Source: Patescibacteria group bacterium (GTDB taxonomy: Bacteria; Patescibacteriota; Patescibacteriia; JBAZBY01). From it: 64,000 nucleotides of DNA. Each line of letters starts with the position of its first letter. Positions within the stretch are counted from its first letter, which is position 1. The position numbers and the translations under genes were made by a program. A model generated the notes under the pieces. That model saw nothing but the letters and a program-made list of their open reading frames with translations. It was not told the DNA's origin and searched no databases. The stretch is taken from the NCBI GenBank assembly GCA_041671225.1, contig JBAZBY010000001.1:174940-238939 (forward strand), given 5' to 3'. This document shows, one piece after another, positions 8,253 through 63,864 of this stretch.

Positions 8253-8363
8253 TAAAGCCCTCCTTCTGTCGCACGCGTGCGACGGCTGTTCTGGCAACTT
8301 GGGGAAGAACGATTGAACTACACTCTCCTTACCGGATATCCCTCATGGTGTCAATAAGCGCGC

Positions 8364-10194: not shown

Positions 10195-10199
10195 AAAAT

Positions 10200-10235: not shown

Positions 10236-10301
10236 GGGGAACACCGCGGGCTTTCCGCGGAATTCATTGCGGGCTGGCCAGTGACGGCCAAGGGACAAGA
10301 A

Positions 10302-45495: not shown

Positions 45496-45527
45496 GTGCC
45501 CGATCCTCCTCCTGGGGGATCGGGCAC
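45496..45527 (-). terminator. Rho-independent terminator of the phosphorylase gene (11-bp perfect stem GTGCCCGATCC/GGATCGGGCAC)
   Basis: On the minus strand the hairpin is followed by GTTTCTTATTG. Confidence 0.6.
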
Positions 45528-45603: not shown

Positions 45604-46431
45604 TCAGAGACCCGGCACCATGCTGAACACGGAAGGCCGCCCGGTGCAGGCGCAGGTCCACTGAGAGGCATCATGCCCCTGCAGCGAGCCCATCACGCGC
45701 AGGAACGAGCGTGCAAGCGGTTCCTGGCGCGTTGCCATCACCGCAGCGACCTCATCGCCGCTCACCGCCTTCTGCCTTTCGGGGATGTCCGTGACCACGC
45801 AGACGCTCTGGTAGTGCACGTCCTCACCCTGACGGCAGAGCACGGCCTCAGGCGCCGTAGTCGGCATGCCGAGCAGATCCGCCCCAAAGACCCTGTCCAG
45901 TATGCGGACCTCGGCAGGCGTCTCGTAGCGATCCCGAACCGCAACGGCGAGCAGTCCGCCGTCCGTGATCCCCGGGTCCACTGCGAGCAGATGCCGGAGA
46001 TGCGGACAGAAGAAATCGTTGCAGGGACGGAAGTACGCCAACGGATCATGATGCCCCGGCCGATCGAACGTCCACTTCCCCGCGGTGAGGTCGAAGAAGT
46101 CGTGCGGAGCGATGAGCGACCCGAGCTCCATGCCCGGGATTCGGGTGGCGATGCCGCCCGTTGCGGACGTCGCGAGAACGAAGTTCACACCCATCGTATC
46201 CAGCAGAGGGCGCATGTAGCGCTCGTGCTCGAGATCGGGCGGCGGGCAGTACGCACCGAATGCGTAATGCCGCTTCAGAAACACGAACTCAATGTCCCCG
46301 CACTGAACGATGCTGTAGCGCAGGACGTCATGGTACCTGGTGTCCATGGTGTGGTCGGTGACCTCACCAAACTCCCGGAACACGTCCTCCATCCCGGTAC
46401 CTGCGATGACGGCGATCTTGGGAAAGGGCAT
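45604..46431 (-). CDS. Purine nucleoside / 5'-methylthioadenosine phosphorylase family protein (PNP_UDP_1), high-GC
   Basis: N-terminal KIAVIAGTGMED and DLLGMPTTAPEAVLCRQ, MTAP/PNP-like. GAGGAGG SD 7 nt before the ATG at 46431. A TTGACA-containing, AT-rich promoter lies around 46505-46540. Confidence 0.75.
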   Translation of the reverse strand: MPFPKIAVIAGTGMEDVFREFGEVTDHTMDTRYHDVLRYSIVQCGDIEFVFLKRHYAFGAYCPPPDLEHERYMRPLLDTMGVNFVLATSATGGIATRIPGMELGSLIAPHDFFDLTAGKWTFDRPGHHDPLAYFRPCNDFFCPHLRHLLAVDPGITDGGLLAVAVRDRYETPAEVRILDRVFGADLLGMPTTAPEAVLCRQGEDVHYQSVCVVTDIPERQKAVSGDEVAAVMATRQEPLARSFLRVMGSLQGHDASQWTCACTGRPSVFSMVPGL

Positions 46432-46600
46432 GCGTATCCTCCTCAGTTGCGTCGCGCAATGCACGACAAAGAAAGAGCCTTCCTCCTCAAAAAGACGCCG
46501 TGAGCTTACGTATAATAGTGGTTGTTGTCAATACAAAAATGCCGAATAGTGTACGGCGTAGCGTCCCTCGACCACTGACCAGAGGCCAGCTAGTGGCTGA

Positions 46601-46675
46601 TGGTGTCCCCAAGAGGAGTCGAACCTCTGTCTTAGCCTCCGGAGGGCTACGCTCTATCCACTGAGCTATGGGGAC
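46601..46675 (-). tRNA. tRNA-Arg (anticodon CCG)
   Basis: Hand-folded cloverleaf: acceptor GTCCCCA/TGGGGAC, D-arm GCTC-AGTGGATA-GAGC, anticodon stem TAGCC/GGCTA with loop CTCCGGA, T-arm AGAGG-TTCGACT-CCTCT, CCA encoded. Confidence 0.85.
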
Positions 46676-47435
46676 GCACCTTGTTGTCTCCATTCTGCAC
46701 GAACTCACGGGCAGTATTCATGTCATCAGGATTCGAAAGATGAAGGCACGGTTCTGCAAGCTCCATAACCTTCACTTTCTTTTTTCCTGCAAGTATAGTA
46801 ATGGCATCCGTAAGCTCGTATTCTCCGCGCTCGGATTCTTTTACCTGTTTGATTGTATCAAAAATTTCGGGGAGAAAACGATATAAACTCATATTCGCCA
46901 AATTCCCCGGAGGATTTTCTGATTTTTCCGCTATCTCCTGCAGCATATTGTTCTCTCCAAGAACCGCAATACCAAAATCCTTCGGGTGATCACTTGAAAT
47001 GACACTCATAACATGTAACTCCTCATCAAAGTGTCGTATGCGCTGAAGATCAGATAAAGAATAGAGCTGGTCGCCTGCAAGTGCGATGAACGTCTCTCCT
47101 TTGGTTGCTGCTTCTGCCGCAAGAATTGCCATTGCCGTTCCATAATGATTCTCTGGTGTCACTGCATACTGATTAACCGTCTGTACCTCCAGCCCTGACG
47201 GTGTCTGCTGCAGCACGACATCAAACTGCTCGCGCATGTGTCCCGTTACTACCACCACGCGAGTGAATCCTGCGGCTGCAAGTCGTTCAAGTGCATACAG
47301 TAAAAAGGGCCTCCCTTCAACAGGGAGAAGTGGCTTTGGTGTTGTTGCCGTGAGCTCCTTCATCCGCGTGCCTCGTCCCGCAGCCATAATGACTGCGGTA
47401 TCCACGGGAACGCCCTGCGTATTGTGCTGTTCCAT
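46647..47435 (-). CDS. Sugar-phosphate nucleotidyltransferase (NTP_transferase family)
   Basis: N-terminal VIMAAGRGTRM motif; the 3' end of the CDS overlaps the 5' 29 nt of tRNA-Arg. Confidence 0.8.
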   Translation of the reverse strand: MEQHNTQGVPVDTAVIMAAGRGTRMKELTATTPKPLLPVEGRPFLLYALERLAAAGFTRVVVVTGHMREQFDVVLQQTPSGLEVQTVNQYAVTPENHYGTAMAILAAEAATKGETFIALAGDQLYSLSDLQRIRHFDEELHVMSVISSDHPKDFGIAVLGENNMLQEIAEKSENPPGNLANMSLYRFLPEIFDTIKQVKESERGEYELTDAITILAGKKKVKVMELAEPCLHLSNPDDMNTAREFVQNGDNKVRPHSSVDRA

Positions 47436-47504
47436 ACTTCAGATACAAATGTGGTGAACGTGGCGCCATATGATCCGCGCCTGACGCATCTTTCGGGCTA
47501 GAGT

Positions 47505-48491
47505 CTACCAGACCCGATGGTGTTTGAGAAGCGCACCGATCCGATATGCTGGATACAACAGATACCGGTACGGAAAATCCGAGCTGCGCGGCCAGGCAAC
47601 GCGCGCACCGCCAAATCCTTCCTTAAAACGTGTAATGCCGGCCCAAGGGTGAACAGCACCTGCATCTGCTGGGGCGACACCGCGAAAATCATACCGCCGG
47701 TATCCATGTGCCTTTGCATACTGCAGCCCCTCCCAATGGAGAAGAAATGGCGCCATAACATTCTTATGCTCATCAGATGATGCGCCATGGGCATACGTCA
47801 TGGTCGTACCAAAAAAAAGAGCAAGGCTAATTGCGACGGGCGTGCCTTCATAGCGGGCAACAAAAATCTTTAGGCTGCACTTTTCTGGTATGGGAGTGCC
47901 TGATTCCGCGAGAACAACGAACATCTTCTTAAAGTACTCCAATGGTTCACTCTGAATCTCATGCCGCGTGGCTGTTCGTTCAGTAAGGTCAAGAAAGGCT
48001 GCCAAGCCTTTATCGTTCGTCTCGTCAGCAACAACAACGCCCTTCTTTTGCGCGAGGCGAATGTTGTATCGCGTCTTCTGATGCATTGCCGCGAGTAATT
48101 CCTCTTCATTCTGCGTGACATCGACAACAACGGTATCCTGTGGTTGTGTTGCGGAAACAGGAAAGCCAGGTTCGATCATGTGTACCGGATCAACGCGAAC
48201 AAAAAGACGTCCATCAGCGCGCTGTTGGAGTTCTTTGCGAAAATCCTGCCACTGCGCCATCTTCGCATCATCATGAAAAAGCGGGCCACGGGGAATATAA
48301 AAGTAACCCATACCGCGCGGCAGTGGCATGGTGATGATCTGTGCCTGAACGTTGCCGTTCGTAAGCCGTACGACGCTACGGCCAGTTGCTTCTTGAAATG
48401 TTCCCCATTCCCATGACTGCGTAAAAGGATCATGCGCTCCTGTAAGGAGTGCGCGATTCCATTCTTCTGCTGTGCCTTCCAAGAAACTCAT
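47505..48491 (-). CDS. FemAB-family peptidoglycan peptide-branch (aminoacyl-tRNA-dependent) transferase
   Basis: KTRYNIRLAQKKG motif and overall FemX/MurM-like length and layout. Confidence 0.8.
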   Translation of the reverse strand: MSFLEGTAEEWNRALLTGAHDPFTQSWEWGTFQEATGRSVVRLTNGNVQAQIITMPLPRGMGYFYIPRGPLFHDDAKMAQWQDFRKELQQRADGRLFVRVDPVHMIEPGFPVSATQPQDTVVVDVTQNEEELLAAMHQKTRYNIRLAQKKGVVVADETNDKGLAAFLDLTERTATRHEIQSEPLEYFKKMFVVLAESGTPIPEKCSLKIFVARYEGTPVAISLALFFGTTMTYAHGASSDEHKNVMAPFLLHWEGLQYAKAHGYRRYDFRGVAPADAGAVHPWAGITRFKEGFGGARVAWPRSSDFPYRYLLYPAYRIGALLKHHRVW

Positions 48492-49051
48492 GCAAGTTGT
48501 CGCAACGCTTCACGAATCTGCTCTGTGGTGTCTGCAACTTCATCAGGGACCTTGGCGAGTGCTTCGCGCGCTTCCTGTGCCCGGTACCCCAAGCCGATCA
48601 ATGCTTCAAATGCGTCCGTGCGTTCCGGCGTCAAACTTTGTGCAAGTTCTTTGCCGCCGAACTTCTCCTTGAGTTCAACGATAATCCGCTCCGCAGTCTT
48701 CTTCCCGATGCCAGAAACTTTTGTGAGCATGCCTGTATCCGCAGAACGAACGGATTTTTGGATATCCTGCGCAGATGCCAATGACAGAATGCCAAGCGCC
48801 GTTTTTGGGCCAACGCCGCTCACGGTAATTAATGCAAGAAAAATTTCGCGTTCAAAAAGAGAAGCAAAGCCATAAAGCTCCATCGCGTTCTCACGGAGAT
48901 GCGTATGCACAAAAAGGGCAATTGCTGCGCCTTTCCTCTTTCCCTGCTTCACGCGGGCACTCACTGCGAGTTCATAGCCAACGCCCTGCACATTCAGAAT
49001 AAGAGTGCGTTCGGTAACTTCCTGCAGTGTGCCTTCAAGATAGCCAATCAT
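48488..49051 (-). CDS. ruvA: Holliday junction DNA helicase RuvA
   Basis: MIGYLEGTL..GVGYEL N-terminal OB domain and HhH motifs (GVGPKTAL, GIGKKTAERI). Confidence 0.93.
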   Translation of the reverse strand: MIGYLEGTLQEVTERTLILNVQGVGYELAVSARVKQGKRKGAAIALFVHTHLRENAMELYGFASLFEREIFLALITVSGVGPKTALGILSLASAQDIQKSVRSADTGMLTKVSGIGKKTAERIIVELKEKFGGKELAQSLTPERTDAFEALIGLGYRAQEAREALAKVPDEVADTTEQIREALRQLA

Positions 49052-49089
49052 CGTGCCTCCACCCTACCAATGTCAGAGAAAATTGAAAA

Positions 49090-49120
49090 GGCCTGCCCCC
49101 ATTCTCCAGGTGGGGGTAGG
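49090..49120 (-). terminator. Terminator of the high-GC operon (11-bp stem with one G-U, followed by CTTTTCAATTTTC on the minus strand)
   Basis: Hairpin GCCTGCCCCCA..TGGGGGTAGGC downstream of the cupin gene. Confidence 0.55.
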
Positions 49121-49155
49121 CCTCGCTTGGCAAGATGATGCGCTATACCACGCAT

Positions 49156-49575
49156 CTAGATTCGACCGAAGTCATCTTCGAAACGAACGACGTCGGCGAG
49201 CTGGGGCGTTGAAACCTCCAGCAAGATAGCGACGCCATCTCGCGCATGGACGCGGTGCACCGTTCCCGGCGCCAGAATGAACACATCGTCCTTGTAAAGA
49301 GTCATCTCCGTGAGTTCCTCCGGAGAGGGCCCCACGAAAACCTGCACGGGACCATTCAGCACCACCCAGGCCTCCTCCTTCTCGTCGTGGCGCTGAAGAG
49401 AAAACCGTGCTCCTCGGTTGATGACGAGGGTCTTGAGGGCGAATCCCTGTCCGAACACGATCCATTCCTCGCGACCCCAAGGCTTGATCACCCGGACGGT
49501 CTCCACTCGCCCAGTGAACCCCTCCGGAACCTGCAGCGCCATCGGATTGAACTGACCATCACGAACGACCCTCAT
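49156..49575 (-). CDS. Cupin-domain protein (mannose-6-phosphate isomerase type II-like cupin_2), high-GC
   Basis: PWGREEW...SLQRHDEKEEAWVVLNG...GTVHRV cupin motifs. Start at MRVVRDG with AAGGAAGGAGGG SD. Confidence 0.7.
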   Translation of the reverse strand: MRVVRDGQFNPMALQVPEGFTGRVETVRVIKPWGREEWIVFGQGFALKTLVINRGARFSLQRHDEKEEAWVVLNGPVQVFVGPSPEELTEMTLYKDDVFILAPGTVHRVHARDGVAILLEVSTPQLADVVRFEDDFGRI

Positions 49576-49764
49576 ACCGCGTACCCTCCTTCCTTGTGTT
49601 TGCGGTGCGCCCCACTTTACCAAAAAGAAGATTTTCGTCAATGGAAAATCCGACAGCACTCCTCCCTATGTACTGTTGGATTCGAGGGGGATGCCCCCTG
49701 TTGTACGAATGGACGGACGGACGACTCTTGATACGATCCGGTAGAGGGGGCATGGCAGCGGCTC

Positions 49765-50178
49765 CTAAAAGCCTGACCGCTCGCCGATATCGGCCGGCGA
49801 CTTCATGGGGGACCCCGGCGAATCAAGTCCCGCGAGCTCCGGAACGTCGCGACAACTCTCTCGTTGTTCAAACAGATCCGCAAGCTCAAGAGAGGCGAGC
49901 AACATCGAGATCTTGGTCCCGATGATCCACACTACCCGAGGCGCGGGATTGCGTTTTTCGAGCTCGTCCATCAACGCGCCCATGCCGTCCACGATGCTAT
50001 GGGTGGCAACCCGCAGGCCGCTCAGGTCGACGATGACGAGAGTGGCCTCCAGAGCAATGACCCCAGTCGCTCCGGACAGAACGGCGCTATCGCGAGAGGT
50101 GATACATATCCCTTCAGCCGTCACAAGATGGCCGCTCTGGCCTTCTCCGTAACCGAAGGGTTGGTGTTTCAGCTTCAT
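49765..50178 (-). CDS. STAS-domain protein (anti-sigma-factor antagonist-like) 1, high-GC
   Basis: LVIVDLSGLRVATHSIVDGMGALMDEL...VVWIIGTKISMLLASLELADLFE has SpoIIAA-like topology. AAGGAG SD at 5 nt. Confidence 0.65.
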   Translation of the reverse strand: MKLKHQPFGYGEGQSGHLVTAEGICITSRDSAVLSGATGVIALEATLVIVDLSGLRVATHSIVDGMGALMDELEKRNPAPRVVWIIGTKISMLLASLELADLFEQRESCRDVPELAGLDSPGSPMKSPADIGERSGF

Positions 50179-50221
50179 GAATGCTCCTTCTTGTACGACG
50201 AGTACCACGCCTCAAACAAAG

Positions 50222-50602
50222 TCACGCATCGCACTCTCCCGTACGCTGCTCACGCGACTGCCACGTGAGGGCGACCGCCTCGTCCTCAACAATCTCGAAG
50301 ACCTCGTCGAGGCCGAGAGTATGCAGCATGTGCATGAACCGACGCGATACACCGCAGAAGATGAGTGGCGTGTTCCGGTTCATGCAGTGCGCGTGGAGTG
50401 TGACGAGCTTGCCGACGAAGATCGAGTTGATAAGTGTGAGCTCGGCACAGTCCACGATGACGCGGTTCACGTCCCGTGTCACGTCCTTCACGCTACATAC
50501 GAAGTCCTCGTGATCGCCATCGGACACAAAGGGTCCGAAAAGCTGCACAACGCGTGCGTGGACCCCGCCCGGTATGGGAAGGGTTCTGACGATGATGGTC
50601 AT
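50222..50602 (-). CDS. STAS-domain protein (anti-sigma-factor antagonist-like) 2, high-GC
   Basis: VIVDCAELTLINSIFVGKLVTLHAHCMNRNTPLIFCGVSRRFMHMLHTLGLDEVFEI; GGAGG SD at 6 nt. Confidence 0.65.
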   Translation of the reverse strand: MTIIVRTLPIPGGVHARVVQLFGPFVSDGDHEDFVCSVKDVTRDVNRVIVDCAELTLINSIFVGKLVTLHAHCMNRNTPLIFCGVSRRFMHMLHTLGLDEVFEIVEDEAVALTWQSREQRTGECDA

Positions 50603-50669
50603 CGCAAACCTCCATGATCCCTTGCGGAATCGATGAGTGGCACGTTCCGCCCTTTGGATTTCAAAGAGC

Positions 50670-50703
50670 CAATCACCGTAACGTAAAGACTGGTGATTGT
50701 CAA
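50670..50703 (-). promoter_or_regulatory. Putative promoter/operator of the STAS-STAS-cupin operon: palindrome CAATCACC-N14-GGTGATTG overlapping a TTGACA -35
   Basis: Perfect 8-bp inverted repeat at 50670-50677 and 50692-50699; minus-strand TTGACA at 50698-50703. Confidence 0.4.
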
Positions 50704-50782
50704 CGCGTTGTGCACTTTATGATGAAGCACTTGCCGGCCACGCATAAGTCCGCGAGGGACGAAGGCGAATCAATGAAAAGAG

Positions 50783-50811
50783 GGGGCCGTCCGGCTTTGC
50801 CGGACGGCCCC
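50783..50811 (-). terminator. Rho-independent terminator of the lipoprotein gene (13-bp GC stem plus CTCTTTTCATT)
   Basis: GGGGCCGTCCGGC-ttt-GCCGGACGGCCCC followed on the minus strand by a U-rich tract. Confidence 0.7.
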
Positions 50812-50823
50812 ACACAGCATCAC

Positions 50824-51456
50824 CTACTCCGCAACGCAGAGAAAGAGCTGTTGCGCTTCACGGGCAATCGCCCGCGTAGTCTCCTCCTCGCTCGAATGCA
50901 GGAAGATACGCGGCGTCACGAACGTAAGCGGCGAACTGGTCACAAGAGCAAGGCAAGAGAAACGCCCGCCGTCTGCGAGCAGATCCATAGGCAGCGCATT
51001 CACGGGTATCGTTGCGCGGTGATCGCGCGTTTGCCCGCCTTCGTAGTACGCCGCGATCCGGCGGTCGCCTTCGCCAAGGTCATACGCAAAGAACCAGCCC
51101 TCGTATGTTGCAAGCGTTTCCGCTCGTGAGCGCGAGAACCATGTGGTCTCTGCAAACCCCAGAACCGTCGCCGTCTTGAGTGCCCCGTTCCGGAACAGGG
51201 CAACGAGCATGCGAATCTCGTCCTCCGCTTCCACGGGAATCAGCAACGCTTCCGTGCCGTCACCATACGCCACGTGCCATGCGCGGTCGTACTCTACCAA
51301 TCCCAGATTCTCGGAAAGTGGAAGCTGCCTCACGTCCGAGAGCAACGCGTGCTCGGCTCCCACAACAGAAGCCTCCAACAACATAGACTCCGGCGCAACA
51401 ATATCCTCGGCGCATCCGCACATCACGAATACGCACGCCAGCATCAGCAGTTTCAT
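50824..51456 (-). CDS. Hypothetical lipoprotein (high-GC)
   Basis: MKLLMLACVFVMCGC lipobox signal. GGAGG SD 8 nt upstream of the ATG at 51456; no recognisable domain. Confidence 0.6.
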   Translation of the reverse strand: MKLLMLACVFVMCGCAEDIVAPESMLLEASVVGAEHALLSDVRQLPLSENLGLVEYDRAWHVAYGDGTEALLIPVEAEDEIRMLVALFRNGALKTATVLGFAETTWFSRSRAETLATYEGWFFAYDLGEGDRRIAAYYEGGQTRDHRATIPVNALPMDLLADGGRFSCLALVTSSPLTFVTPRIFLHSSEEETTRAIAREAQQLFLCVAE

Positions 51457-51686
51457 CGTCTTTTCCTCCATACGAAAAAAAGCCCGCGCCACTGCACGAG
51501 CCACCAGAATTAAAAAAGGGCGGTACTTCCGCCACTGCACACAGGATACTCCGGAACGAAAAATGTGTCAAAAAAATGGAAACCCGAGAACAACCCTCTC
51601 TCTGTATTGAGATCAACAGTCGGGAAAACTCATTTCTTCATTCTTCTCTACTCCCAACAACCTACAACCTACCACCTATTTCCTGC

Positions 51687-51692
51687 TACAAT
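51687..51692 (+). promoter_or_regulatory. uvrB -10 element TACAAT abutting the start codon (leaderless-type); upstream C/A-rich direct repeats ACAACCTAC x2
   Basis: TACAAT lies 2 nt before ATG 51695 and 8 nt before ATG 51701. There is no SD. Confidence 0.35.
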
Positions 51693-51694
51693 GA

Positions 51695-53725
51695 ATGAAT
51701 ATGGATTTCAAACTACACGCCGACTTCAAACCAACAGGTGACCAACCGCAGGCAATCCGCGGTTTGATTAATGGTGTAAAAAAGGGGGCGCGCGACCAAA
51801 CGCTTCTCGGTGTGACCGGCTCAGGAAAAACCTTCACCATGGCGAACGTCATTGCAGAACTACAGCGTCCCACACTTATCATCTCCCACAACAAGACCCT
51901 CGCCGCGCAGCTTGCGAGCGAATTCCGGGAATTCTTCCCCAAAAGCGCCGTACACTACTTTGTCTCATACTACGACTACTACCAACCAGAAGCGTACGTC
52001 GCACGCAGTGACACCTTCATTGAAAAAGAAACGGACATCAATGAAGAGATCGAGCGTCTGCGCCATGCGGCAACACAGGCACTGCTGACGCGCAAAGATG
52101 TCATCATCGTTGCCTCTGTCTCCTGCATTTATGGTTTGGGTTCGCCAGCAAAGTATGGTGCACAACGGCTCACACTGCATGCGGGCCAGCGCGTTTCCCT
52201 GCGCGATGTGTTGAAGGACCTCACGCAAATACAATTCACACGCAATGACATTGATTTCACTCGCGGTTCCTTCCGCGTGAAAGGCGATGTACTCGATATC
52301 TTCCCGACCTTCGCGGACGAAGAAGTAATCCGCGTTGAATTCTACGGAGATGAAATCGACACCATCAGCACCATCAACGCCATCACGGGAAAAACCGTGC
52401 GTAAAGAAAAAGACGTGCAGGTCTTTCCCGCTTCGCTTTATATTGCAGAACAGAATGACATCCCAGACATGGTGAAAACGATCCGCAAGGAAATGGCCGC
52501 GCGCGTTGCCTGGTTCAAAAAAGCGGGCAAACTCATTGAGGCGCAACGCATTGAGGAACGCGTGAACTTTGATACGGAAATGCTCCTAGCAACAGGCTTC
52601 ACCTCTGGCATTGAGAACTATTCGCGATACATGGATGGCCGCAAGCCAGGCGAAGCATCATACACGCTCATTAATTACTTCCAAGAAGCGGCAAAGGCAG
52701 CAACGGGTAACCCAAAAGATTTTCTCCTCTTTATTGATGAATCACACATGACCGTTCCGCAAATTGGTGCGATGCATGAGGGGGACAAAAGCCGTAAAGT
52801 AACTCTTGTAGATTATGGATTCCGCCTGCCCTCTGCGCTTGATAATCGTCCGCTGACCTTCAAAGAATTTCGCGAGCGCACCGGCCAGACGATCTATGTC
52901 TCGGCCACGCCGGGTCCATATGAAAAAAAAGTCTCCACAAAGACCGTGCAGCAACTCATTCGTCCTACGGGTCTTCTGGACCCCTCTATTGAGGTGAAGC
53001 CAACGGAACATCAGGTTGATGACTTAGTCGAACAGATTCAGGCGCGGCTCAAAAAGAAACAACGCGTGCTCGTCACCACACTCACAAAAAAGATGTCCGA
53101 GGATTTATCTGAATACATCGCCAATCTTGGAATCAAGGTCACATATCTTCATTCTGATATTGACACGCTTGATCGCATCGACATTTTGCGTGACCTGCGG
53201 CTTGGGAAGGTCGATGTTCTCATTGGCATCAACCTCCTGCGCGAGGGGCTCGACCTGCCGGAGGTTTCCCTTGTTGCGATCCTTGATGCCGATAAAGAAG
53301 GCTTCCTCCGTTCTGAGACGTCACTCGTGCAAACAATCGGTCGCGTGGCGCGCCATAGAGAAGGTCATGCTATTCTCTATGCAGACCGAATCACCGGAAG
53401 TATGAAACGCGCAATCGATGAGACAGAACGCCGGAGGGCATCACAACAAGCATATAATGATCAACACGGTATCACTCCCGCATCGATCAAGAAGGCAGTA
53501 CGCGATGACCGCTTTGCCGGCAAAAAACATGAAGAAGCGGATGTGCTGCTTCCGAAGATAAAAGACATACCTCCGGAAGAACTCCCGCATATCACACATC
53601 AACTGGAAGAAAAAATGGAACTTGCCGCACAGAACCTGGATTTTGAAGAAGCCGCCAGATTGCGCGATCTTATCGCAAAACTTTCTCCAAAAAAAACCAT
53701 ACGCAGTAAACGAGGCAAGCGATGA
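51695..53725 (+). CDS. uvrB: Excinuclease ABC subunit B
   Basis: FKPTGDQPQAIRGL, GVTGSGKTFTMANVI helicase motif I and C-terminal UVR domain (EEAARLRDLI). Translation may actually start at ATG 51701. Confidence 0.96.
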   Translation: MNMDFKLHADFKPTGDQPQAIRGLINGVKKGARDQTLLGVTGSGKTFTMANVIAELQRPTLIISHNKTLAAQLASEFREFFPKSAVHYFVSYYDYYQPEAYVARSDTFIEKETDINEEIERLRHAATQALLTRKDVIIVASVSCIYGLGSPAKYGAQRLTLHAGQRVSLRDVLKDLTQIQFTRNDIDFTRGSFRVKGDVLDIFPTFADEEVIRVEFYGDEIDTISTINAITGKTVRKEKDVQVFPASLYIAEQNDIPDMVKTIRKEMAARVAWFKKAGKLIEAQRIEERVNFDTEMLLATGFTSGIENYSRYMDGRKPGEASYTLINYFQEAAKAATGNPKDFLLFIDESHMTVPQIGAMHEGDKSRKVTLVDYGFRLPSALDNRPLTFKEFRERTGQTIYVSATPGPYEKKVSTKTVQQLIRPTGLLDPSIEVKPTEHQVDDLVEQIQARLKKKQRVLVTTLTKKMSEDLSEYIANLGIKVTYLHSDIDTLDRIDILRDLRLGKVDVLIGINLLREGLDLPEVSLVAILDADKEGFLRSETSLVQTIGRVARHREGHAILYADRITGSMKRAIDETERRRASQQAYNDQHGITPASIKKAVRDDRFAGKKHEEADVLLPKIKDIPPEELPHITHQLEEKMELAAQNLDFEEAARLRDLIAKLSPKKTIRSKRGKR

Positions 53726-54144: not shown

Positions 54145-54185
54145 GGCTTGCCTACACAGATCCTTAGTCTGTGAGGCGGAAAGAG

Positions 54186-55607: not shown

Positions 55608-55770
55608 AGGCGTGCTTTCCTTTCTCCGCAAACGCGGAAATCCCCTGGACCGTATTGTCCAAAGAGCAACGCTCTCCCCACGATTGAGGAGTGCTTTACC
55701 TTATCACTCAGGTACCGGCAGCGTCAAAGTCTTGCGTGGATTTAAAGCTTGTGGTACCGTCTGTTTTGCT

Positions 55771-56040
55771 ATGCCAATCAAAAAAGCATCAATCAAAGAC
55801 CTCAAACAGTCAAAAGCACGACAGGATAAAAACCGTCGTGTGAAGACGAGTATCCGCCGCCAGATCAAGGAACTGCGCAGTGCGGCAAAAGAGCAGGACA
55901 AAAAAAAGGCCAGCGATATTCTTGCCAAAACAATTAAGGCAATGGATACGGCTGTGAGTAACGGTGTGCTTAAAAAAAACACCGCCGCGCGCAACATATC
56001 GCGCCTGACCAAACTCGTGAACGGTCTCAAAAAAATCTAA
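55771..56040 (+). CDS. rpsT: 30S ribosomal protein S20
   Basis: MPIKKASIKDLKQSKARQDKNRRVKTSIRRQIKEL is typical S20; start at the internal ATG of the track ORF. Confidence 0.9.
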   Translation: MPIKKASIKDLKQSKARQDKNRRVKTSIRRQIKELRSAAKEQDKKKASDILAKTIKAMDTAVSNGVLKKNTAARNISRLTKLVNGLKKI

Positions 56041-57014: not shown

Positions 57015-57105
57015 AGGGCTTGTATCTTGACATGCTGGCGTGCGTCTGTAAATGTTGCGGTAGATTCACCCGATCTTTCCACCCTGCGAGCTGGAGGGCT
57101 CTGCA

Positions 57106-57372
57106 ATGCGCTACTGTCCATCATGTCAGCAGCCGCTCCCGGAAAGCGGCACATGCCAGACCCTAAAATGCCAACAGGCCACAGCCCTTGGCAAGGGTCA
57201 ATGCTCTCTTTGCGACTCCGCACTCCACGAAGGCCACTGTCCCGCATGCGAACACGTATCGGCAGTAACAACGTCGCGCGTGTGCGCCACACACCACGTC
57301 CAGCTCGCGCCGGACGGAACCTGCCCCCACTGCGAAGGGGTCTGCCTCAGCGCACTGCTGGGGACAGCCTGA
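57106..57372 (+). CDS. Cys-rich small protein (88 aa; 12 Cys as 4 CxxC pairs plus others): double zinc-ribbon-like, high-GC
   Basis: MRYCPSCQ...CSLC...CPAC...CPHC; GGAGGG SD 7 nt upstream; divergent from holA. Confidence 0.55.
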   Translation: MRYCPSCQQPLPESGTCQTLKCQQATALGKGQCSLCDSALHEGHCPACEHVSAVTTSRVCATHHVQLAPDGTCPHCEGVCLSALLGTA

Positions 57373-57377
57373 AAGGA

Positions 57378-57635
57378 ATGACGATGGATTCTTTGCTCTT
57401 CTACCGCGGACGGCTTCTGTGCATCGAAGTGGACGAAAGTGGCATGCCGGAAGCGATCCCAATGGGATTCAACCCCGGTCAGCGCCTCCTCCGGCGTCGG
57501 AGGGCATCACGGCACCTCAAACCCTCTCGACTCGAGGAAGGACTCGCCATATCCACATTGGATGAGGAAACAACCGGACTCCTGGATCTCGCAGAAGGTC
57601 CGCCGATTGCTACGCCTCCTCCTCGCATGAAGTGA
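57378..57635 (+). CDS. Hypothetical protein (85 aa) immediately downstream of the Cys-rich gene; same high-GC cassette
   Basis: AAAGGAA SD; Arg-rich centre (LLRRRRASRHLKPSR) and Pro-rich end; the cassette terminator follows. Confidence 0.4.
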   Translation: MTMDSLLFYRGRLLCIEVDESGMPEAIPMGFNPGQRLLRRRRASRHLKPSRLEEGLAISTLDEETTGLLDLAEGPPIATPPPRMK

Positions 57636-57665
57636 CAGATCACAACCTCGTTCTCTCCGCACTCC

Positions 57666-57710
57666 GCGCCGACCCCTGGGCTTCTCCCTTGGGTCGGCGC
57701 TTCTTTTAAT
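57666..57710 (+). terminator. Rho-independent terminator of the Cys-rich cassette (10-bp stem GCGCCGACCC/GGGTCGGCGC plus TTCTTTTAATCCTCTTCTTT)
   Basis: Perfect inverted repeat followed by a T-rich tract. Confidence 0.65.
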
Positions 57711-57765
57711 CCTCTTCTTTACTGAAAATGATGATCCGCCGAAGTCTACACTGTGAATAAACAGA

Positions 57766-60495
57766 TTACAGTGGGCTCATCTCACCCCAATTCTTCCCCA
57801 CCTCTGCATCCACAATGATCGGCACAGGGAGCTTCATCGCCTTCTCCATTTTTTCTTCAACAAAAGCCGCGACCTTCTTCACATCACCTTCTGGCACTTC
57901 AAGAACAAGTTCGTCATGCACCTGCAAAATCATGCGCGCCTTCTGAGAAACATTATGAAGCTCTGCATACACATCCACCATCGCCTTCTTCATGAGATCC
58001 GCAGCCGTACCCTGGAGCGGCATATTCACCGCCATGCGCTCTGCGGCGGAGCGGAGCATGCCATTGGAACTATCAATTTCCGGCAACGGCCTGCGACGCC
58101 CAAAAAGCGTCTCTGCATACTTGTTCCGCTTCGCGAATCGTTTTGCATCCTCCAGCCACTTTGCAAGCCCCGTGTACACGGCAAAGTACTGCTCAATGAA
58201 ATCCCGCGCCTCATTCAGCGGAATACCCGCGCCCTTTGCGAGGCCGAACATTCCCTGTCCATAGAGCACGCCGAAGTTCACCGCCTTGGCAGCATAGCGC
58301 TGCTCTTTTGTGACCTCATCAAGCGGAACGTTCCACACGCGCGCTGCGGTTGCCGCATGAATATCTTCGCCCTTCTTAAAACTTTCCAACATCGCTGCAT
58401 CCTGAGAAACCGCGGCCGCAAGACGCAATTCAATTTGTGAATAATCACAAGAAAGAAGGCGCATACCTTGCGGAGCAATAAAGGCATTACGAATCTCACG
58501 CCCAAGTTCCGTGCGCACCGGAATATTCTGCAAGTTTGGATTCTGGGAAGAAAGCCGCCCCGTTGCTGCCACGACCTGATTATAACTGGTGTGAATGCGT
58601 TTTGTTCGTTTGTGCACCAACTCGGGCAAGGCATCAAGATACGTGGAAACGAGCTTTGAAAGCTCCCGAAACTCCATGATCATATCAATGATCGGGTGCT
58701 TGCCTTGAAGCTTTTCAAGTTCACTTGCTCGCGTCGAAATGCCGGTCTTTGTATGCCCTAAACCGCTGATAGGAATCTGCATCTTTTGAAAAAGCACTTC
58801 CTGAAGCTGTGACGGCGAATTGATATTGAATTCCACGCCTGCTGCCGTATAAATATCCTGCTCAATCGCCTTGAGGCGCTTTGTGTGTTTTGCGGAGAGT
58901 TTTTTTAAAAAAGTTACATCAACATCCACACCGTTCCGTTCCATATGCGCAAGAACCAGAATCAGCGGCATTTCTATCTCATGAAAAAGTTTCATGAGTC
59001 CTTTTTCTTCCAGTTGCGGCGCGAACTTCTGATACAAACGGAAGGTGTAATCCGCATCTTCCGCCGCATACGGTCCAACCTTCTCAAGTGGCACATCTAG
59101 CATCGTGAGCTGATCCTTCCCCTTCTTGCCGATCAGATCTTCTATCGGTTGCATCTCATATCCGAATTCGCCGAAGACAAGAGTATCCAGCTTGTGCGAC
59201 CGCGAACCGGGATTCAAAAGATATGAAGCGACCATGGTATCAAACGCAACGCCTTTCATGCTGCTGCAGTATCCGTACAGCACTTTAATATCAAACTTGA
59301 GGTTATGTCCGACCTTTTGGATTCGCTCATTCTCAAAAAATGCTTGCAATAATTTAAGCCAATTCGGGTGCTTACGCACGTGCACAAAATATGCTTCCCC
59401 GGCCTTCCATGCGAGGCTAATGCCGATAAGGTCTGCATCGATCGTTTCAAGGCTGTCTGTTTCGGTATCAATCGCCACGACCTTCTGCTTCATGAGCTCG
59501 CCATACATCTTCTGGAACGTTGCATCATCATCGACAAGAATGTAGTTGTGCGTGCCCGTACCCGGCTTTGCGCGCGGTGTCGCTGCTATTGCCGCTGCGT
59601 CACCGTTTGAACCGGGAAGCTGGCCAACCAAACTGCGGAACTCAAGCTCTTGCAAAAGGCTCACTACCTTCGCGCGGTCATATTCTGCAAGCTCCGCATC
59701 CTGCAGCGTGAAATCGATCTTCATGTCCGTAATGATCGTCGCGAGTTTGTATGACTCGAATGCATCCTTCTTGGAGTCAAGAAGCAGGCGCTGAACGCGC
59801 TCGGGGAACGATGCAAATTTTTTTGATTTTTTCTCAAGTGCATCATACATCTTCTCCACTGTGCCAAATGCGGCAAGCAGCTCCGTTGCTGTTTTATCAC
59901 CAATACCTTTTACGCCCGGAATGTTATCTGAGCTATCACCCTTGAGCGCCTTATAATCAATGACCTGCTCAGGCTTAAAACCATATTTTTCAATGAACGC
60001 CTTGCCATCCATCACGGATGACTCCGTTGGGTGGCGACGTGCTTTAAAGATCGTGATCTTGGGATCAATCAACTGAAATGCATCCATGTCCGATGTGACG
60101 ATAACCGTCTCGTCTGCAAGATGTCTCTTTGCTATCGTGCCGATGATGTCATCTGCCTCAAAGCCCTTCTGTTCAAGAATAGGAATATTGAGTGCCTCCA
60201 CAAGTTCGCGTACGCGAGGGATCTGCTCAAACATATCGTCTGGCATCTTCTCGCGCGTGGATTTGTAATCCGCTGAAATAGCATCACGGAACGTCTCTCC
60301 CTCCACATCAAACGCCACCATAAGATACTGCGGTTTCAGTTCACGAATGACGCGGAACAGGATAGCGGCAAAACCATACACCGCATTCACCTGCTCGCCT
60401 TTTTTTGTGGTGAGCGGCGGAATAGCGTGGAATGCCTGATACATCAGGGCATGGCCGTCGATGATCGCAAGACGGGTCTTGGTTTTTTTTGCCAT
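57766..60495 (-). CDS. polA: DNA polymerase I (5'-3' exonuclease plus 3'-5' exo-like plus polymerase domains)
   Basis: N-terminal MAKKTKTRLAIIDGHALMYQAFHA (FEN motif) and polymerase motifs (RRAAKAVNFGVLYG, VHDELVLE). Start at 60495. Confidence 0.96.
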   Translation of the reverse strand: MAKKTKTRLAIIDGHALMYQAFHAIPPLTTKKGEQVNAVYGFAAILFRVIRELKPQYLMVAFDVEGETFRDAISADYKSTREKMPDDMFEQIPRVRELVEALNIPILEQKGFEADDIIGTIAKRHLADETVIVTSDMDAFQLIDPKITIFKARRHPTESSVMDGKAFIEKYGFKPEQVIDYKALKGDSSDNIPGVKGIGDKTATELLAAFGTVEKMYDALEKKSKKFASFPERVQRLLLDSKKDAFESYKLATIITDMKIDFTLQDAELAEYDRAKVVSLLQELEFRSLVGQLPGSNGDAAAIAATPRAKPGTGTHNYILVDDDATFQKMYGELMKQKVVAIDTETDSLETIDADLIGISLAWKAGEAYFVHVRKHPNWLKLLQAFFENERIQKVGHNLKFDIKVLYGYCSSMKGVAFDTMVASYLLNPGSRSHKLDTLVFGEFGYEMQPIEDLIGKKGKDQLTMLDVPLEKVGPYAAEDADYTFRLYQKFAPQLEEKGLMKLFHEIEMPLILVLAHMERNGVDVDVTFLKKLSAKHTKRLKAIEQDIYTAAGVEFNINSPSQLQEVLFQKMQIPISGLGHTKTGISTRASELEKLQGKHPIIDMIMEFRELSKLVSTYLDALPELVHKRTKRIHTSYNQVVAATGRLSSQNPNLQNIPVRTELGREIRNAFIAPQGMRLLSCDYSQIELRLAAAVSQDAAMLESFKKGEDIHAATAARVWNVPLDEVTKEQRYAAKAVNFGVLYGQGMFGLAKGAGIPLNEARDFIEQYFAVYTGLAKWLEDAKRFAKRNKYAETLFGRRRPLPEIDSSNGMLRSAAERMAVNMPLQGTAADLMKKAMVDVYAELHNVSQKARMILQVHDELVLEVPEGDVKKVAAFVEEKMEKAMKLPVPIIVDAEVGKNWGEMSPL

Positions 60496-60532
60496 GACCT
60501 TATTGTACACGCACACGCGTGTCGACGGAAAT

Positions 60533-62629
60533 CTATGCGGAGATGTTGCGCGCTCCGCGGCGGTGCAGCACAAAAAAGACGCCGCCGATGGCGAGCATGA
60601 GCGCGGAAAGCACCAATGCGAGCATGGTCGTTGGTTTAATGGTAAAGGGCTCCTCTGCATGGAGTTCTGTTGTCGTTGCGGCAACGGGTGCCGTCTCAGC
60701 AGGAGACGCCTCATCAGTTGCGGCAAGCACCGCGCCCTTCTGCTCTACGATGTCATCAATGCTGCGCGGAAGAAATTCGTCGTCCAGAAAGAATCCGGTC
60801 ACGGTGATGCCATCCCCGACAAGAAGCGACGCGAGATCGATCCCCGTGCCGCTCTTCACGCGCACGGCAATTGGCCCGGCATCTGTGGCGAGCGTCATGA
60901 GCGTCCGCTGCTTCTTCTCCACCGTACCGCTCACGGTCTCCACGACAGACTCAGACGCCACTGCGTCACTCACCTCAACGCCGCCATCCCGCCCGAGATT
61001 CACCTTCACGCCACTCTGGTCCATGCCGATGACGCCGCGAACGGTCACCACATCATCAAGCGCAAGCTCCGGGAAACGATCCGTGCTGGAGTACACGCGC
61101 ACCAATGCATCGCCCTCGGCAATGTACAGCGTGTGGCTTGCGATCTGGCCCGGCAAAGCAATCACCACGCCAGAAACGGCGACCTTCTCGTTACGGTCCA
61201 GAGATGCAAGGTCAGCAATGCGGCGTGAGGCAAAGCCGTCAGTCTCCGGCGTGATGGCAGCATCCTCCGTTTCCGCATCGATTTTCTCAGACTCCTCATT
61301 TTCTTCGCCGCTCCATTGCCAATGCGTGGATGCTCCATCGCGGAGAAATATCTGATCCTCCGGGGCCGTGCCGAACTCCACGCCGTTCACCTTCTTCCCG
61401 AAGGGATCAATGAGATGGACAACATCCCCGGTATTGTTGAGCATGATGCGGCTCTCTGTGCGCATGATGCGCAGCGTTGCGCCGGACTTCAGCGGGGTAC
61501 TTGCTGCGAGCGTGAACGTCCTACTTCCATCACTCACGGACCATCCATAAAGGTCCACGGTCTTTGCGGCGAAATTCGTTATCTCAACATACTCGCCGGC
61601 AGTATCATCCCCCGGCGGATTCGGAAGCACGGCCGTCAACAGAACATGCGCTGACGTCATCGGTTCTTGGTTTTGGGATTGGGGTGCGGAGTCTTTTGGT
61701 GTTTTGTCGCTTGGTGAGGTATTCGTATTGCTGTTCGTGTTATCAGGCGGAGTTTCGCCGGACGGCGTCTCTCCATCATCTTGCGTAACCGGCGCATTGT
61801 TTTGCACAAAAACCTGAAGCGTCTGCGTTGCAGATGCGCGACCATCACTCACGGTGCAGGAAAGCAAAAATTCGCCTTCTCGTGCGAAGGTCCGTACAAA
61901 CGTTGCTCCGGTGCCGGATGCAGAACCATCCACACTCCAGGAAATAGCCAGCACATCGTTATCCGCATCTGTGGCTTCTGCAGTAAAAGTTGCTGATGTG
62001 CCGACGATCACCTCATCCGGACCCACGCACGCCACATCCGGCGCTTGGTTGGAATTCTCTACCTTTGGCGTTGCAAAAAACCCTTCCACGTCCGCATTGG
62101 CGCTTGCTGTATGCCATGCCTCCGCCGTATCCCCCGGCAGGTCAACGCGATGCCTCTCCATGGATGCCCAATTGCTTCCGCTTGCATACTCACCGGCGAA
62201 CGGAATGCCGATGCCTTCATCCGCAACATCCACCACTGCTCCACCCGCATCGTATAAGTGAAGCAGGAGCTTGGAATTTACGAGCGAGACGGCAGGATCC
62301 ACCACATCCGGCTCCACCATAAGCGCGCTGTTTGCATCCCCGTTCGCATAATTCGCGATAAGGAAGAAGCCGTGCGCCGGAATGGTCTTTCCCGGCAATA
62401 CGAGCATCTCCGTCTCCACGTCGTTGGAGAGCTTGGTGATGCGCCAACCGGAAAGATCGATGTCACTGTCCGTTGTATTGAGGAGCTCTATCCATTCATC
62501 CTGCGCGCTCGCAGGTGAACCCATCCACAGGAGTTCATTGATAATGACGTGAGAAGTTGTTGCCTGCGCAGGCAAAATCCAGACCAATAAAAACACCATC
62601 GCCACGAGAACAAGAATACGTACGTACAT
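60533..62629 (-). CDS. Cell-surface protein with two lamin-tail domains (LTD), a PKD-like domain and a C-terminal TM anchor
   Basis: LTD motifs HVIINELLWMGS..EWIELLNTTDSDIDLSGWRI and VLLTAVLPNP..EYVEITNF..VDLYGWSVSDG; PKD-like VACVGPDEVIVGTSATFTAEATD; C-terminal hydrophobic helix plus HRRGAR. Confidence 0.8.
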   Translation of the reverse strand: MYVRILVLVAMVFLLVWILPAQATTSHVIINELLWMGSPASAQDEWIELLNTTDSDIDLSGWRITKLSNDVETEMLVLPGKTIPAHGFFLIANYANGDANSALMVEPDVVDPAVSLVNSKLLLHLYDAGGAVVDVADEGIGIPFAGEYASGSNWASMERHRVDLPGDTAEAWHTASANADVEGFFATPKVENSNQAPDVACVGPDEVIVGTSATFTAEATDADNDVLAISWSVDGSASGTGATFVRTFAREGEFLLSCTVSDGRASATQTLQVFVQNNAPVTQDDGETPSGETPPDNTNSNTNTSPSDKTPKDSAPQSQNQEPMTSAHVLLTAVLPNPPGDDTAGEYVEITNFAAKTVDLYGWSVSDGSRTFTLAASTPLKSGATLRIMRTESRIMLNNTGDVVHLIDPFGKKVNGVEFGTAPEDQIFLRDGASTHWQWSGEENEESEKIDAETEDAAITPETDGFASRRIADLASLDRNEKVAVSGVVIALPGQIASHTLYIAEGDALVRVYSSTDRFPELALDDVVTVRGVIGMDQSGVKVNLGRDGGVEVSDAVASESVVETVSGTVEKKQRTLMTLATDAGPIAVRVKSGTGIDLASLLVGDGITVTGFFLDDEFLPRSIDDIVEQKGAVLAATDEASPAETAPVAATTTELHAEEPFTIKPTTMLALVLSALMLAIGGVFFVLHRRGARNISA

Positions 62630-62700
62630 AAAACGATGGCCACCAGTGCCACCGTATGTTCCCCGTTTCGCCGGGAAGGGTCTCTCTTTATAAAGTTTTA

Positions 62701-62720
62701 GTGGCCCCCGAAAGGGCCAC
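62701..62720. other. GC hairpin GTGGCCC-CCGAAA-GGGCCAC between prs and the LTD gene (no clear U-tract)
   Basis: Perfect 7-bp stem read from the sequence. Confidence 0.3.
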
Positions 62721-62859
62721 CAAAACAGGTCTCTACAGGCCAGTATAAAAAAACACCCTCGCGGTGTCAAGGGGGGAGTGAAGGCAGGTCAAGAGGAGTA
62801 TTGGGGGCCCGCCAGAAATGGGGGCCCCGCAGGGGTATGAAGAAATGGCCACCGAGTCG

Positions 62860-63864
62860 CTAGGCGTTCAACGAACCGCACATCGCGAGGTAGGAATCCT
62901 CCTCGAACAGCGCCGAGATGGAATCCTCGTCACCGCGAATCGCCCGGATAGCAAGTGCAAGGAGCTTGGCGACGGTACAGACCTTGAACTTCTCAGGAAG
63001 TTCCTCCGGACGATGGAGATAGATGGTATCCGTCACCAGAATCTCGGTCAGTGCCGCACACTCGTCCAGACGCTTCACGGCATCGCCGATGAGCTTCGCA
63101 TGCGTGACAACGACACGCACAGACAGCGCGCCGCGCTCAATCAACGCTTCAGCAGCCTTGATCAGCGAGCTTCCCGTAGCCGACTCGTCCTCCACGATGA
63201 AGCAGTGCCTGCCCTTCGGATCTCCCAGAACGCCACTGCTCGTGAGCGTGTCGCCTTCCCGTGCCTTGTGCACGATGATGAGCGGCGCGTCAAGACGCTT
63301 GGAGTACGAATTGATGATCTTGCCGCCGCCGATGTCCGCAGACGCGACCGAAAGCATGGGGAGTCCACGATTCCGAATCTCGCCAAGGAACACCGGACGA
63401 ACGTAGAGGTGATCACAGCGCACTCCCGGGCCTGGGAAAGACTGCTCCTGGGCAGCGTGCAGATCGAGGAACACGAGACGGTCAACGCCAGCCGTTGCGG
63501 CGAGATCGATCATCAGTTTCGAGGTAACCGCGACGCGTGACGTGTCCTTGCGATCCATCCGTGTCCCGAGCAGGTACGGAATGACCGCAATGACGCTGCT
63601 CGCCGAAGCATCACGTGCCGCACGCGCGAGCATGAACAGCTCGCCAGCGTTATCCCAACTGGACTTCGGCGTCGCGTTCGTTGGTTGAATGAGTACCACA
63701 TCGCGACCACGGACATTGTCCTCGAGCCGTGCGTATGGCTCGTTGTCCTTGAACGGCCTTACGTTTGCCGCGCCAAGCGTAACGCCGAGGTACCGACACA
63801 CCTCTAACGCAAGTGGCCTGTTCGCAGTTCCCGTGAAGATGCGCAGATCTGCATGGTTTTTCAA
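62860..63864 (-). CDS. prs: Ribose-phosphate pyrophosphokinase (PRPP synthetase), high-GC
   Basis: MKNHADLRIFTGTANRPLALEV...NVRGRDVVLIQPT and the PRPP-binding loop. The high-GC stretch continues to the window end. Confidence 0.93.
   Translation of the reverse strand: MKNHADLRIFTGTANRPLALEVCRYLGVTLGAANVRPFKDNEPYARLEDNVRGRDVVLIQPTNATPKSSWDNAGELFMLARAARDASASSVIAVIPYLLGTRMDRKDTSRVAVTSKLMIDLAATAGVDRLVFLDLHAAQEQSFPGPGVRCDHLYVRPVFLGEIRNRGLPMLSVASADIGGGKIINSYSKRLDAPLIIVHKAREGDTLTSSGVLGDPKGRHCFIVEDESATGSSLIKAAEALIERGALSVRVVVTHAKLIGDAVKRLDECAALTEILVTDTIYLHRPEELPEKFKVCTVAKLLALAIRAIRGDEDSISALFEEDSYLAMCGSLNA

Follow-up and report, generated by a model that had tools for sequence, protein, structure and literature searches.

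A divergent purF in a conserved gene block of a Patescibacteria genome is probably of vertical descent

A 64,000-nucleotide stretch of DNA from a Patescibacteria group bacterium (GenBank assembly GCA_041671225.1, contig JBAZBY010000001.1, positions 174,940 to 238,939; hereafter the window) encodes three divergent enzymes of ribose-phosphate and purine metabolism. They are a PurF-type amidophosphoribosyltransferase, which acts on glutamine and phosphoribosyl pyrophosphate (PRPP), a nucleoside phosphorylase-like protein of the methylthioadenosine phosphorylase/purine nucleoside phosphorylase (MTAP/PNP) family, and a ribose-phosphate diphosphokinase, Prs (Table 1). The window is part of a genome of ~1 Mb of the Candidate Phyla Radiation (CPR). 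In our reading, which we consider probable but far from settled, purF is a vertically inherited orthologue of canonical purF from a fast-evolved sub-lineage, and the MTAP-like gene and prs are older gains or relocations. A sequence-only reading of the same DNA had regarded the three genes as horizontally acquired islands of high guanine plus cytosine content (GC) in a reduced genome. The three open reading frames that it listed exist, all on the minus strand, and its family assignments hold, with matches to TIGR01694 (MTAP-like), TIGR01134 (PurF) and TIGR01251 (Prs). The three proteins are new, divergent members of known enzyme families. Close homologues are nearly absent for all of them, since a search of 5.8 billion proteins retrieved none above 48% identity.

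Position and descent of purF

The gene order around purF, over 16 kb, matches that of two other genomes. In L074 (GCA_018817785.1) the order is LTD-…-polA-holA-rpsT-purF-CTPt-uvrB-[4 genes]-ruvA-FemAB-NTP_transferase, and in L072 (JGI 3300063017) it is LTD-polA-holA-rpsT-purF-CTPt-…-uvrB-…-ruvA-FemAB-NTP_transferase-tRNA-Arg, where CTPt is a small cytidylyl/adenylyltransferase-like gene. A third genome, L003 (GCA_043800725.1), has part of the block in the order polA-holA-rpsT-CTPt-purF-uvrB, and its PurF (P0003) is 44% identical to that of the window. Pairwise identities of the flanking genes were about equal among the four genomes (polA 51–55%, uvrB 59–65%, others 26–50%). The window purF shared 34–44% identity with its syntenic copies, which lies inside the range of the flanking core genes (26–61%). 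Because it holds the same position in the conserved block of three other genomes, with a divergence matching that of its flanks, purF is not a recent import. The simplest reading is that purF was vertically inherited and has been in its slot since before these four deeply diverged lineages split. The sequence-only reading had stated that its proposal of horizontal acquisition would fall if the genes grouped with vertically inherited homologues of the same lineage, and for purF the synteny in L003, L074 and L072 is of that kind.

Four PurF proteins, those of the window, L003 and L074 together with P0002, make up a divergent clade. Identity was 42–47% within this clade and 32–34% between the clade and the L072 protein (P0245). 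In a neighbour-joining tree the four proteins grouped with a bootstrap support of 100/100; the stem of this group was long, and its neighbours were L072 and a further Patescibacteria PurF, not any GC-rich phylum. In this one sub-lineage, purF would have evolved fast and fallen under the threshold by which PurF equivalogs are recognised.

The CTPt gene adjoins purF in all four genomes, and its end overlaps the uvrB stop by 4 nt. In L003 (9197–11440) it lies on the other side of purF, so that the order of the two genes is swapped relative to the window, L074 and L072, with orientation and adjacency kept. We considered a functional link between purF and CTPt and rejected it, as CTPt is a generic nucleotidyltransferase of the RfaE-II/TagD-like type and the adjacency is explained by the synteny of the block.

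The PurF-like protein

The window protein matched TIGR01134 end to end with 209.6 bits (E 1e-61), below the equivalog cutoff of 350. The clade members L003 and P0244 were also below it (210.5 and 199 bits), whereas the positional orthologue in L072 passed with 373.2 bits. The protein starts with MCGIVGV and aligned over its full length with the [4Fe-4S] PurF structures 1ao0, 1gph and 6lbp, and it has the two-domain architecture of the B. subtilis-type PurF described by TIGR01134 across its full length. It differs from canonical PurF in reading VENGDT for AHNGN, a replacement common to all four clade members, in the absence of the RPDS motif after the first cluster cysteine, and in a 7-residue insertion near the C-terminus.

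Residue conservation was assessed at 59 columns that are at least 90% conserved in 251 canonical PurF sequences. All four clade members kept 44 of the 59. The clade retains Cys1 (after the initiator Met), R26/G27, R73/Y74/T76 and N101/G102, and the phosphoribosyltransferase motifs VPDSS, GRTFI and IVDDSKVRGLT (PRPP loop DDSxVRG-T) are invariant within it. In the window protein the canonical [4Fe-4S] cysteines correspond to C238, C386, C447 and C450, and all sequences keep the four ligands. Only two conserved columns, Gln24 and D127 (E. coli numbering), were altered in all four members. The D127 equivalent is Asp in 251/251 canonical sequences and in L072 and Glu in 4/4 clade members. In E. coli PurF, D127 anchors the α-amino group of glutamine; the replacement is conservative, yet it falls at a key glutamine site. 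Intact catalytic residues, which had been left to be checked, were thus found in PurF as regards the nucleophile, the PRPP loop and the four Fe-S cysteines, with D127 changed to Glu. The clade proteins most likely keep the canonical reaction, from PRPP and glutamine to phosphoribosylamine.

The clade appears to be rare. The search of 5.8 billion proteins returned two homologues of the window protein at 44% identity and then none above 35%. A profile search of 1.84 billion cluster representatives yielded three clade representatives, among them the newly found P0244 (557 bits), which is 99.8% identical to the L074 protein (P0395). The next match was P0245 of L072 with 306 bits, and the continuum of ordinary PurF proteins started at 276 bits. 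A scan of metagenomes with clade-specific PurF motifs gave one ordinary PurF only and no added clade members. In the scan of the genome collection, whose species representatives do not include the genome of the window, the only clade members were L003/L010, the rest being mostly unrelated archaeal PurF proteins with chance matches to a short motif. A literature search on purF or amidophosphoribosyltransferase in CPR/Patescibacteria gave nothing specific. In the NCBI annotation, both the PurF-like and the MTAP-like proteins are labelled 'hypothetical protein'.

The MTAP-like phosphorylase and Prs

The best family match of the MTAP-like protein was TIGR01694 with 75.8 bits (E 3e-21), far under the cutoff of 274.85, and it was also far under the cutoffs of all PNP and methylthioinosine phosphorylase models. 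It was without a Pfam match at E ≤ 0.05 in our scan; a precomputed PF01048 match is on record. The closest solved structures are the archaeal MTAPs 1v4n, 2a8y and 1wta (E 1e-14 to 1e-12), and the alignment with 1v4n runs end to end (residues 7–262, E 3e-14). Only two homologues were present among the 5.8 billion proteins, with 48% and 29% identity.

At its phosphate site the MTAP-like protein keeps the elements G-T-G, R-H, S-A-T-G and G-M-(P)-T. It also keeps the catalytic Asp in the TD motif and a C-terminal Cys-x-Cys. In human MTAP, Ser178, Asp220 and Asp222 form the adenine-specific base site and His65 belongs to the methylthio pocket. When the protein was aligned with 1cb0 and the archaeal MTAPs, Asp220 was kept, Ser178 was replaced by Glu, Asp222 (the second Asp of TDYD) was lost and His65 was not conserved. 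Glu at the Ser178 position is found in 6-oxopurine PNPs, unlike in MTAP. The catalytic residues are therefore intact in part, namely at the phosphate site and the catalytic Asp and not at base-site positions Ser178 and Asp222 or at His65. Since Ser178 is changed to Glu and the second Asp of TDYD is lost, the protein can be placed in the PNP/MTAP superfamily and a substrate specificity cannot be assigned from its residues. A Firmicute MTAP (P0123) has mtnA as a neighbour, in contrast to the window gene, which has none. The ATG at 46431 is preceded by a GAGGAGG Shine-Dalgarno sequence. The hairpin past the stop (Table 1) probably acts as an intrinsic terminator, in which case the unit would consist of this gene alone.

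Prs was better matched by its family. It scored 222.3 bits on TIGR01251 (cutoff 113), matched PF13793, PF00156 and PF14572, and stayed under the cutoffs of narrower models (e.g. NF002320, 245 vs. 297). Compared with 117 class I Prs, it keeps 43 of the 61 columns that are at least 95% conserved and differs in 18. The changes include D81R/R85D, Q103M, G41N and D225E, the last of which replaces the leading Asp of the ribose-5-phosphate loop. The 117 sequences have an invariant Asp/Arg pair at columns 81 and 85, where this protein reads Arg/Asp, an apparent compensating charge swap. The DLHA and RxDRK motifs and the flexible-loop Lys are kept. The protein has a C-terminal extension (334 aa vs. ~315 aa in class I Prs). 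Its best homologues, 43–46% identical, come from ordinary Gram-negative bacteria, and none exceeded 46% among the 5.8 billion proteins. The best match sits in the usual prs-rplY-pth-ychF context; the window prs does not.

Base composition of purF and of the window

Overall GC of the window was 0.519. Composition was tabulated for 50 curated genes, after correction of three public gene calls that were probably on the wrong strand; the median gene GC was ~0.51 and the median GC at third codon positions (GC3) 0.555. Ten of the 50 genes, ~20% of the genes in the window, formed a high-GC class with GC 0.59–0.65 and GC3 0.685–0.83. The other 40 had a GC3 of 0.525 ± 0.061 with a maximum of 0.641. The MTAP-like gene, purF and prs were all inside the high-GC class (3/3 among the top 10/50, P = 0.006, post hoc). 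The seven further members are unrelated genes, encoding a GNAT acetyltransferase, a cupin, a STAS protein, a lipoprotein and three hypothetical proteins. It had been claimed that all nucleotide-metabolism genes of the window sit in high-GC patches. This is so for the MTAP-like gene, purF and prs; the NUDIX hydrolase, FolD, two nucleotidyltransferases and a PGM/PMM-family mutase have background GC, and the enrichment of nucleotide genes in the high-GC class was gone once this wider set was counted (P ~0.2). Each gene had also been described as an island of its own. The borders of the MTAP-like gene and purF are indeed sharp (interior GC 0.64 and 0.605, respectively, vs. 0.49–0.53 in the 300 nt on each side), while prs is the end of a raised-GC stretch of 3.5 kb at 60.5–64 kb. 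When the other high-GC segments of the window were compared with the loci of the relatives by tblastx, no homology was detected; the high-GC genes are therefore not a shared cassette.

For purF, the GC of the gene was compared with that of its flanks (±10 kb) in 44 purF loci from other organisms. These control genes exceeded their flanks by 0.040 ± 0.027 and by up to 0.14. The excess was +0.071 in the window (z 1.1), +0.046 in L003 (z 0.2), +0.060 in L072 (z 0.7) and +0.167 in L074 (z 4.7). Part of the purF 'island' is thus generic to purF genes, and the remainder comes from membership in the high-GC class of the window. Across the four genomes, with background GC between 0.36 and 0.55, purF GC at the first and second codon positions was near constant (0.61–0.66 and 0.42–0.47, respectively). 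In L074, purF (9268–10710) forms a flat plateau with GC 0.55 and GC3 0.52 among neighbours with GC 0.33–0.38 and GC3 0.25–0.34. The rise is limited to the coding sequence (the upstream intergenic GC is 0.37), and G/C-ending codons were more frequent than in the core neighbours for 16 of 17 amino acids. The GC3 of L003 purF is not raised. In L074 and in the window, purF resembles the accessory genes of a nearby variable slot and not its core neighbours. Its high GC may stem from replacement in place out of a GC-richer pool, from biased conversion specific to the gene or from selection on composition.

Several results weigh against vertical descent of purF and against the roles that we assign to the three enzymes. 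The purF plateau in L074, set in a background of GC 0.35, is not explained by simple vertical descent with genome-wide mutation pressure, and in the window the purF GC3 of 0.69 lies 2.7 SD above that of ordinary genes. An exclusive grouping of the PurF clade with L072 received a bootstrap of only 10/100. The flanking genes do not group the three divergent-clade genomes against L072, and for this reason in-situ replacement of one PurF type by another is possible. Phosphorylase activity is not certain given the altered base-binding residues, nor is Prs activity, given changes at four positions where the class I Prs set used for comparison is 100% invariant. A downstream use of phosphoribosylamine would depend on purD–purH.

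Of the alternatives to our reading, the one that fares best, although we hold it only tentatively, is that the high GC belongs to the coding sequence and is maintained in place, either by amino-acid composition together with codon-level selection or by GC-biased gene conversion. The composition would then be silent on origin. The general excess in the 44 unrelated purF loci, the near-constant GC at first and second positions and the coding-sequence-confined rise in L074 are in line with this explanation. However, no mechanism is known by which a single enzyme gene of low expression would keep a GC3 0.2 higher than its neighbours, and the unraised GC3 in L003 does not fit. The remaining members of the window's high-GC class, unrelated accessory genes at variable positions, fit a foreign origin better. 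That purF stays GC-rich in genomes that differ widely in GC poses a small puzzle for models of base-composition evolution, and it is the one real oddity here.

Variable slots and island hallmarks

The positions of the MTAP-like gene and prs are not conserved; in L072 and L074 their slots hold other genes or no gene. The MTAP-like gene lies directly 3′ of tRNA-Arg(CCG). In L072 tRNA-Arg likewise comes after NTP_transferase and is followed by a DUF2378 gene where the window has the MTAP-like gene, and in L074 a CofD gene follows NTP_transferase. At the other site, tRNA-Leu(TAG) is located just beyond the window end (L001 724–810), and prs and Vut_1, the latter just past the window end, lie between this tRNA gene and LTD. 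In L072 tRNA-Leu abuts LTD, with no prs between them. The two tRNA genes are conserved landmarks shared with L072, and the genes that adjoin them differ.

A third variable slot lies between uvrB and ruvA. It holds three genes in the window (Table 1), a hypothetical gene and a PurB-like gene in L072, and four other genes in L074, three of which are GC-rich hypotheticals (0.47–0.52). No homology was found by tblastx between the uvrB-ruvA slots.

Three separate acquisitions of GC-rich islands, through which a reduced genome would have gained PRPP synthesis and purine salvage, are an unlikely explanation. It has several points in its favour. All three genes are in the top 10 of 50 by both GC and GC3, two of them with sharp borders. 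The MTAP-like gene abuts the 3′ end of a tRNA gene, a classic island site, with a different gene there in L072, and prs together with Vut_1 parts tRNA-Leu from LTD here and not in L072. In addition, nucleotide-biosynthesis genes are reported in a preprint to have a phylogenetically scattered distribution in the phylum (bioRxiv 10.64898/2026.06.21.733656). The MTAP-like site resembles tRNA-adjacent genomic islands in having a GC-rich gene immediately 3′ of tRNA-Arg(CCG) and a content that varies between relatives. Unlike such islands, it has a single gene and lacks an integrase, a direct repeat of the tRNA end and an identifiable donor. Neither an integrase nor an att repeat was found around the MTAP-like and prs sites; the tRNA-Arg 3′ end is not repeated elsewhere in the window, and near prs the direct repeats are short, apparently chance matches. 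For purF, synteny in four genomes, a divergence like that of the flanks and the generally higher GC of purF genes than of their flanks argue against an island. The three proteins diverge from their families to an atypical degree, in contrast to recent imports, and with no homologue above 48% identity no donor lineage could be named; the best outside homologues are 29–48% identical and taxonomically mixed.

The divergence of the MTAP-like protein and Prs is too great for a recent import out of a well-sampled group, and the two genes lack an integrase, an att repeat and a donor. The best reading is that both are older gains or relocations specific to the lineage. The proposed horizontal acquisition thus does not hold for purF, and for the MTAP-like gene and prs an old lateral acquisition is plausible and unproven. 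If the ordinary reading holds, the lesson is that a GC island at a metabolic gene of a small CPR genome is not necessarily a sign of recent transfer, and that synteny with distant relatives tests transfer better.

Purine pathway context and the orphan question

No other pur gene was found in the window or in ~7 kb of extension, as had been noted for the neighbourhood of the three genes. This says little about whether purF is an orphan, because pur genes are dispersed in the relative L072. There, a PurB-like lyase is located 5 kb from the canonical purF, among unrelated genes and not in an operon; it scored 229 bits on purB (under the cutoff of 326) and 28 on argH. The region at L072 10615–16026, in or near the uvrB-ruvA slot, contains this lyase and an argininosuccinate synthase. 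Other Patescibacteria loci (L041, L050 and L079) have a stand-alone purF with no pur neighbours, an arrangement that is no guide to the completeness of the pathway. Published surveys disagree on how frequent complete purine synthesis is in the phylum. According to one, 93% of genomes are without de novo nucleotide synthesis and 7% have it (bioRxiv 10.64898/2026.06.21.733656), and in another a complete de novo purine module was present in 32% of CPR metagenome-assembled genomes (PMC11608272).

The three enzymes could be joined in one route. The phosphorylase would convert nucleoside and phosphate to base and ribose-1-phosphate, a mutase would turn the latter into ribose-5-phosphate, and Prs would form PRPP, to be used in base salvage or, via PurF, for phosphoribosylamine. 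The PGM/PMM-family protein of the window may be the phosphopentomutase of such nucleoside salvage. It is unusually long, with an N-terminal extension of ~100 aa, and its best NCBIfam match is an archaeal GlmM-like model (129 bits vs. a cutoff of 439).

We regard it as improbable that purF is an orphan with a new role. Under this explanation purD–purH were lost and the freed amidotransferase evolved fast, for example towards an amide transfer or a PRPP-consuming reaction outside purine synthesis, or towards the use of a different amide donor. The low scores of the clade on TIGR01134 (199–210 bits vs. 373 for the L072 orthologue), the change of D127 to Glu and of Gln24 in all four members, the PurB-like gene in the uvrB-ruvA slot of L072 with none there in the window and L074, and the large share of genomes without de novo synthesis in the first survey would agree with it. 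However, the 44 of 59 columns kept in all four members, including the nucleophile, oxyanion hole, PRPP loop and Fe-S ligands, are what an unchanged reaction predicts, and the change from Asp to Glu is conservative. We know of no use of phosphoribosylamine without PurD, and the compound is chemically unstable. The complete purine modules of the second survey likewise speak against a new role. If true, a repurposed orphan PurF in nucleotide-scavenging episymbionts would mean a hitherto unrecognised use of PRPP or phosphoribosylamine and would bear on the nucleotide supply of Patescibacteria. Least likely of all is the combined case, in which a rare Patescibacteria PurF descendant was repurposed after loss of the purine pathway, with another amide donor or PRPP product, and some as yet unrecognised force acting on this gene, or else repeated replacement in place, kept its composition (GC 0.50–0.60 in any background).

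Other features of the window

The remaining genes are of the housekeeping type (groESL, uvrABC, rpoBC, recA, ftsK, polA, holA, ruvA, ribosomal proteins, murein genes and FemAB), and this content fits a reduced CPR genome; that the genome looks reduced had been noted before.

Table 1. Location and properties of the features discussed in the text (positions within the window; GC3, GC at third codon positions).
Feature	Position	Strand	Properties
MTAP/PNP-family nucleoside phosphorylase-like gene	45604–46431	-	275 aa; WCV86_01105; GC 0.640, GC3 0.80
Divergent PurF-type glutamine-PRPP amidophosphoribosyltransferase (purF)	54186–55607	-	473 aa; WCV86_01160; GC 0.605, GC3 0.69
Divergent class I ribose-phosphate diphosphokinase (prs)	62860–63864	-	334 aa; GC 0.595, GC3 0.70
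CTPt, small cytidylyl/adenylyltransferase-like gene	53722–54144	+	PF01467, TIGR00125; RfaE-domain-II-like
Syntenic block: NTP_transferase, FemAB, ruvA, [slot 49156–51423], uvrB, CTPt, purF, rpsT, holA, polA, LTD/PKD protein	46647–62629
Variable uvrB-ruvA slot: cupin, STAS protein, hyp199b	49156–51423	-	Pfam; three genes, GC 0.59–0.60
tRNA-Arg(CCG)	46601–46675	-	ARAGORN; 3′ end faces the MTAP-like gene
GC-rich hairpin and T-rich run	45496–45527	-	Inverted repeat 14 nt, loop 4 nt
FolD and NUDIX hydrolase	21829–23185 (FolD 21829–22665; NUDIX 22658–23185)	+	Pfam; GC 0.48–0.51
PGM/PMM-family phosphohexo/pentomutase	17212–19140	-	642 aa; ordinary GC; all four PGM_PMM domains

Automated annotation was poor in the high-GC patches, with PurF labelled as hypothetical and prs replaced by an antisense open reading frame, and public gene calls in these patches were often on the wrong strand. 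In the case of prs, one ENA call puts an antisense frame of 240 aa in its place (62818–63540). The GNAT acetyltransferase at 2700–3320 (+; Pfam E 2e-13) is masked by an antisense call at 2733–3434 (-). The called frames at 7456–8151 (+) and 10281–10880 (+) are Arg-rich, with a GC of 0.76 at first codon positions; the frames on the opposite strand at 7735–8274 (-) and 10302–10889 (-) have GC3 0.77–0.82 and look more gene-like.

The top GC3 in the window (0.83) belongs to a predicted lipoprotein of 304 aa (1655–2569, -), which has a signal peptide with a VAAC lipobox and no family match except a very weak one to Peptidase_M91/effector (E 0.014). The gene at 60533–62629 (-) encodes a secreted-type protein of 698 aa with two lamin-tail domains and a PKD domain. 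It is conserved beside polA in L072 and L074, with only 27–37% identity between genomes.

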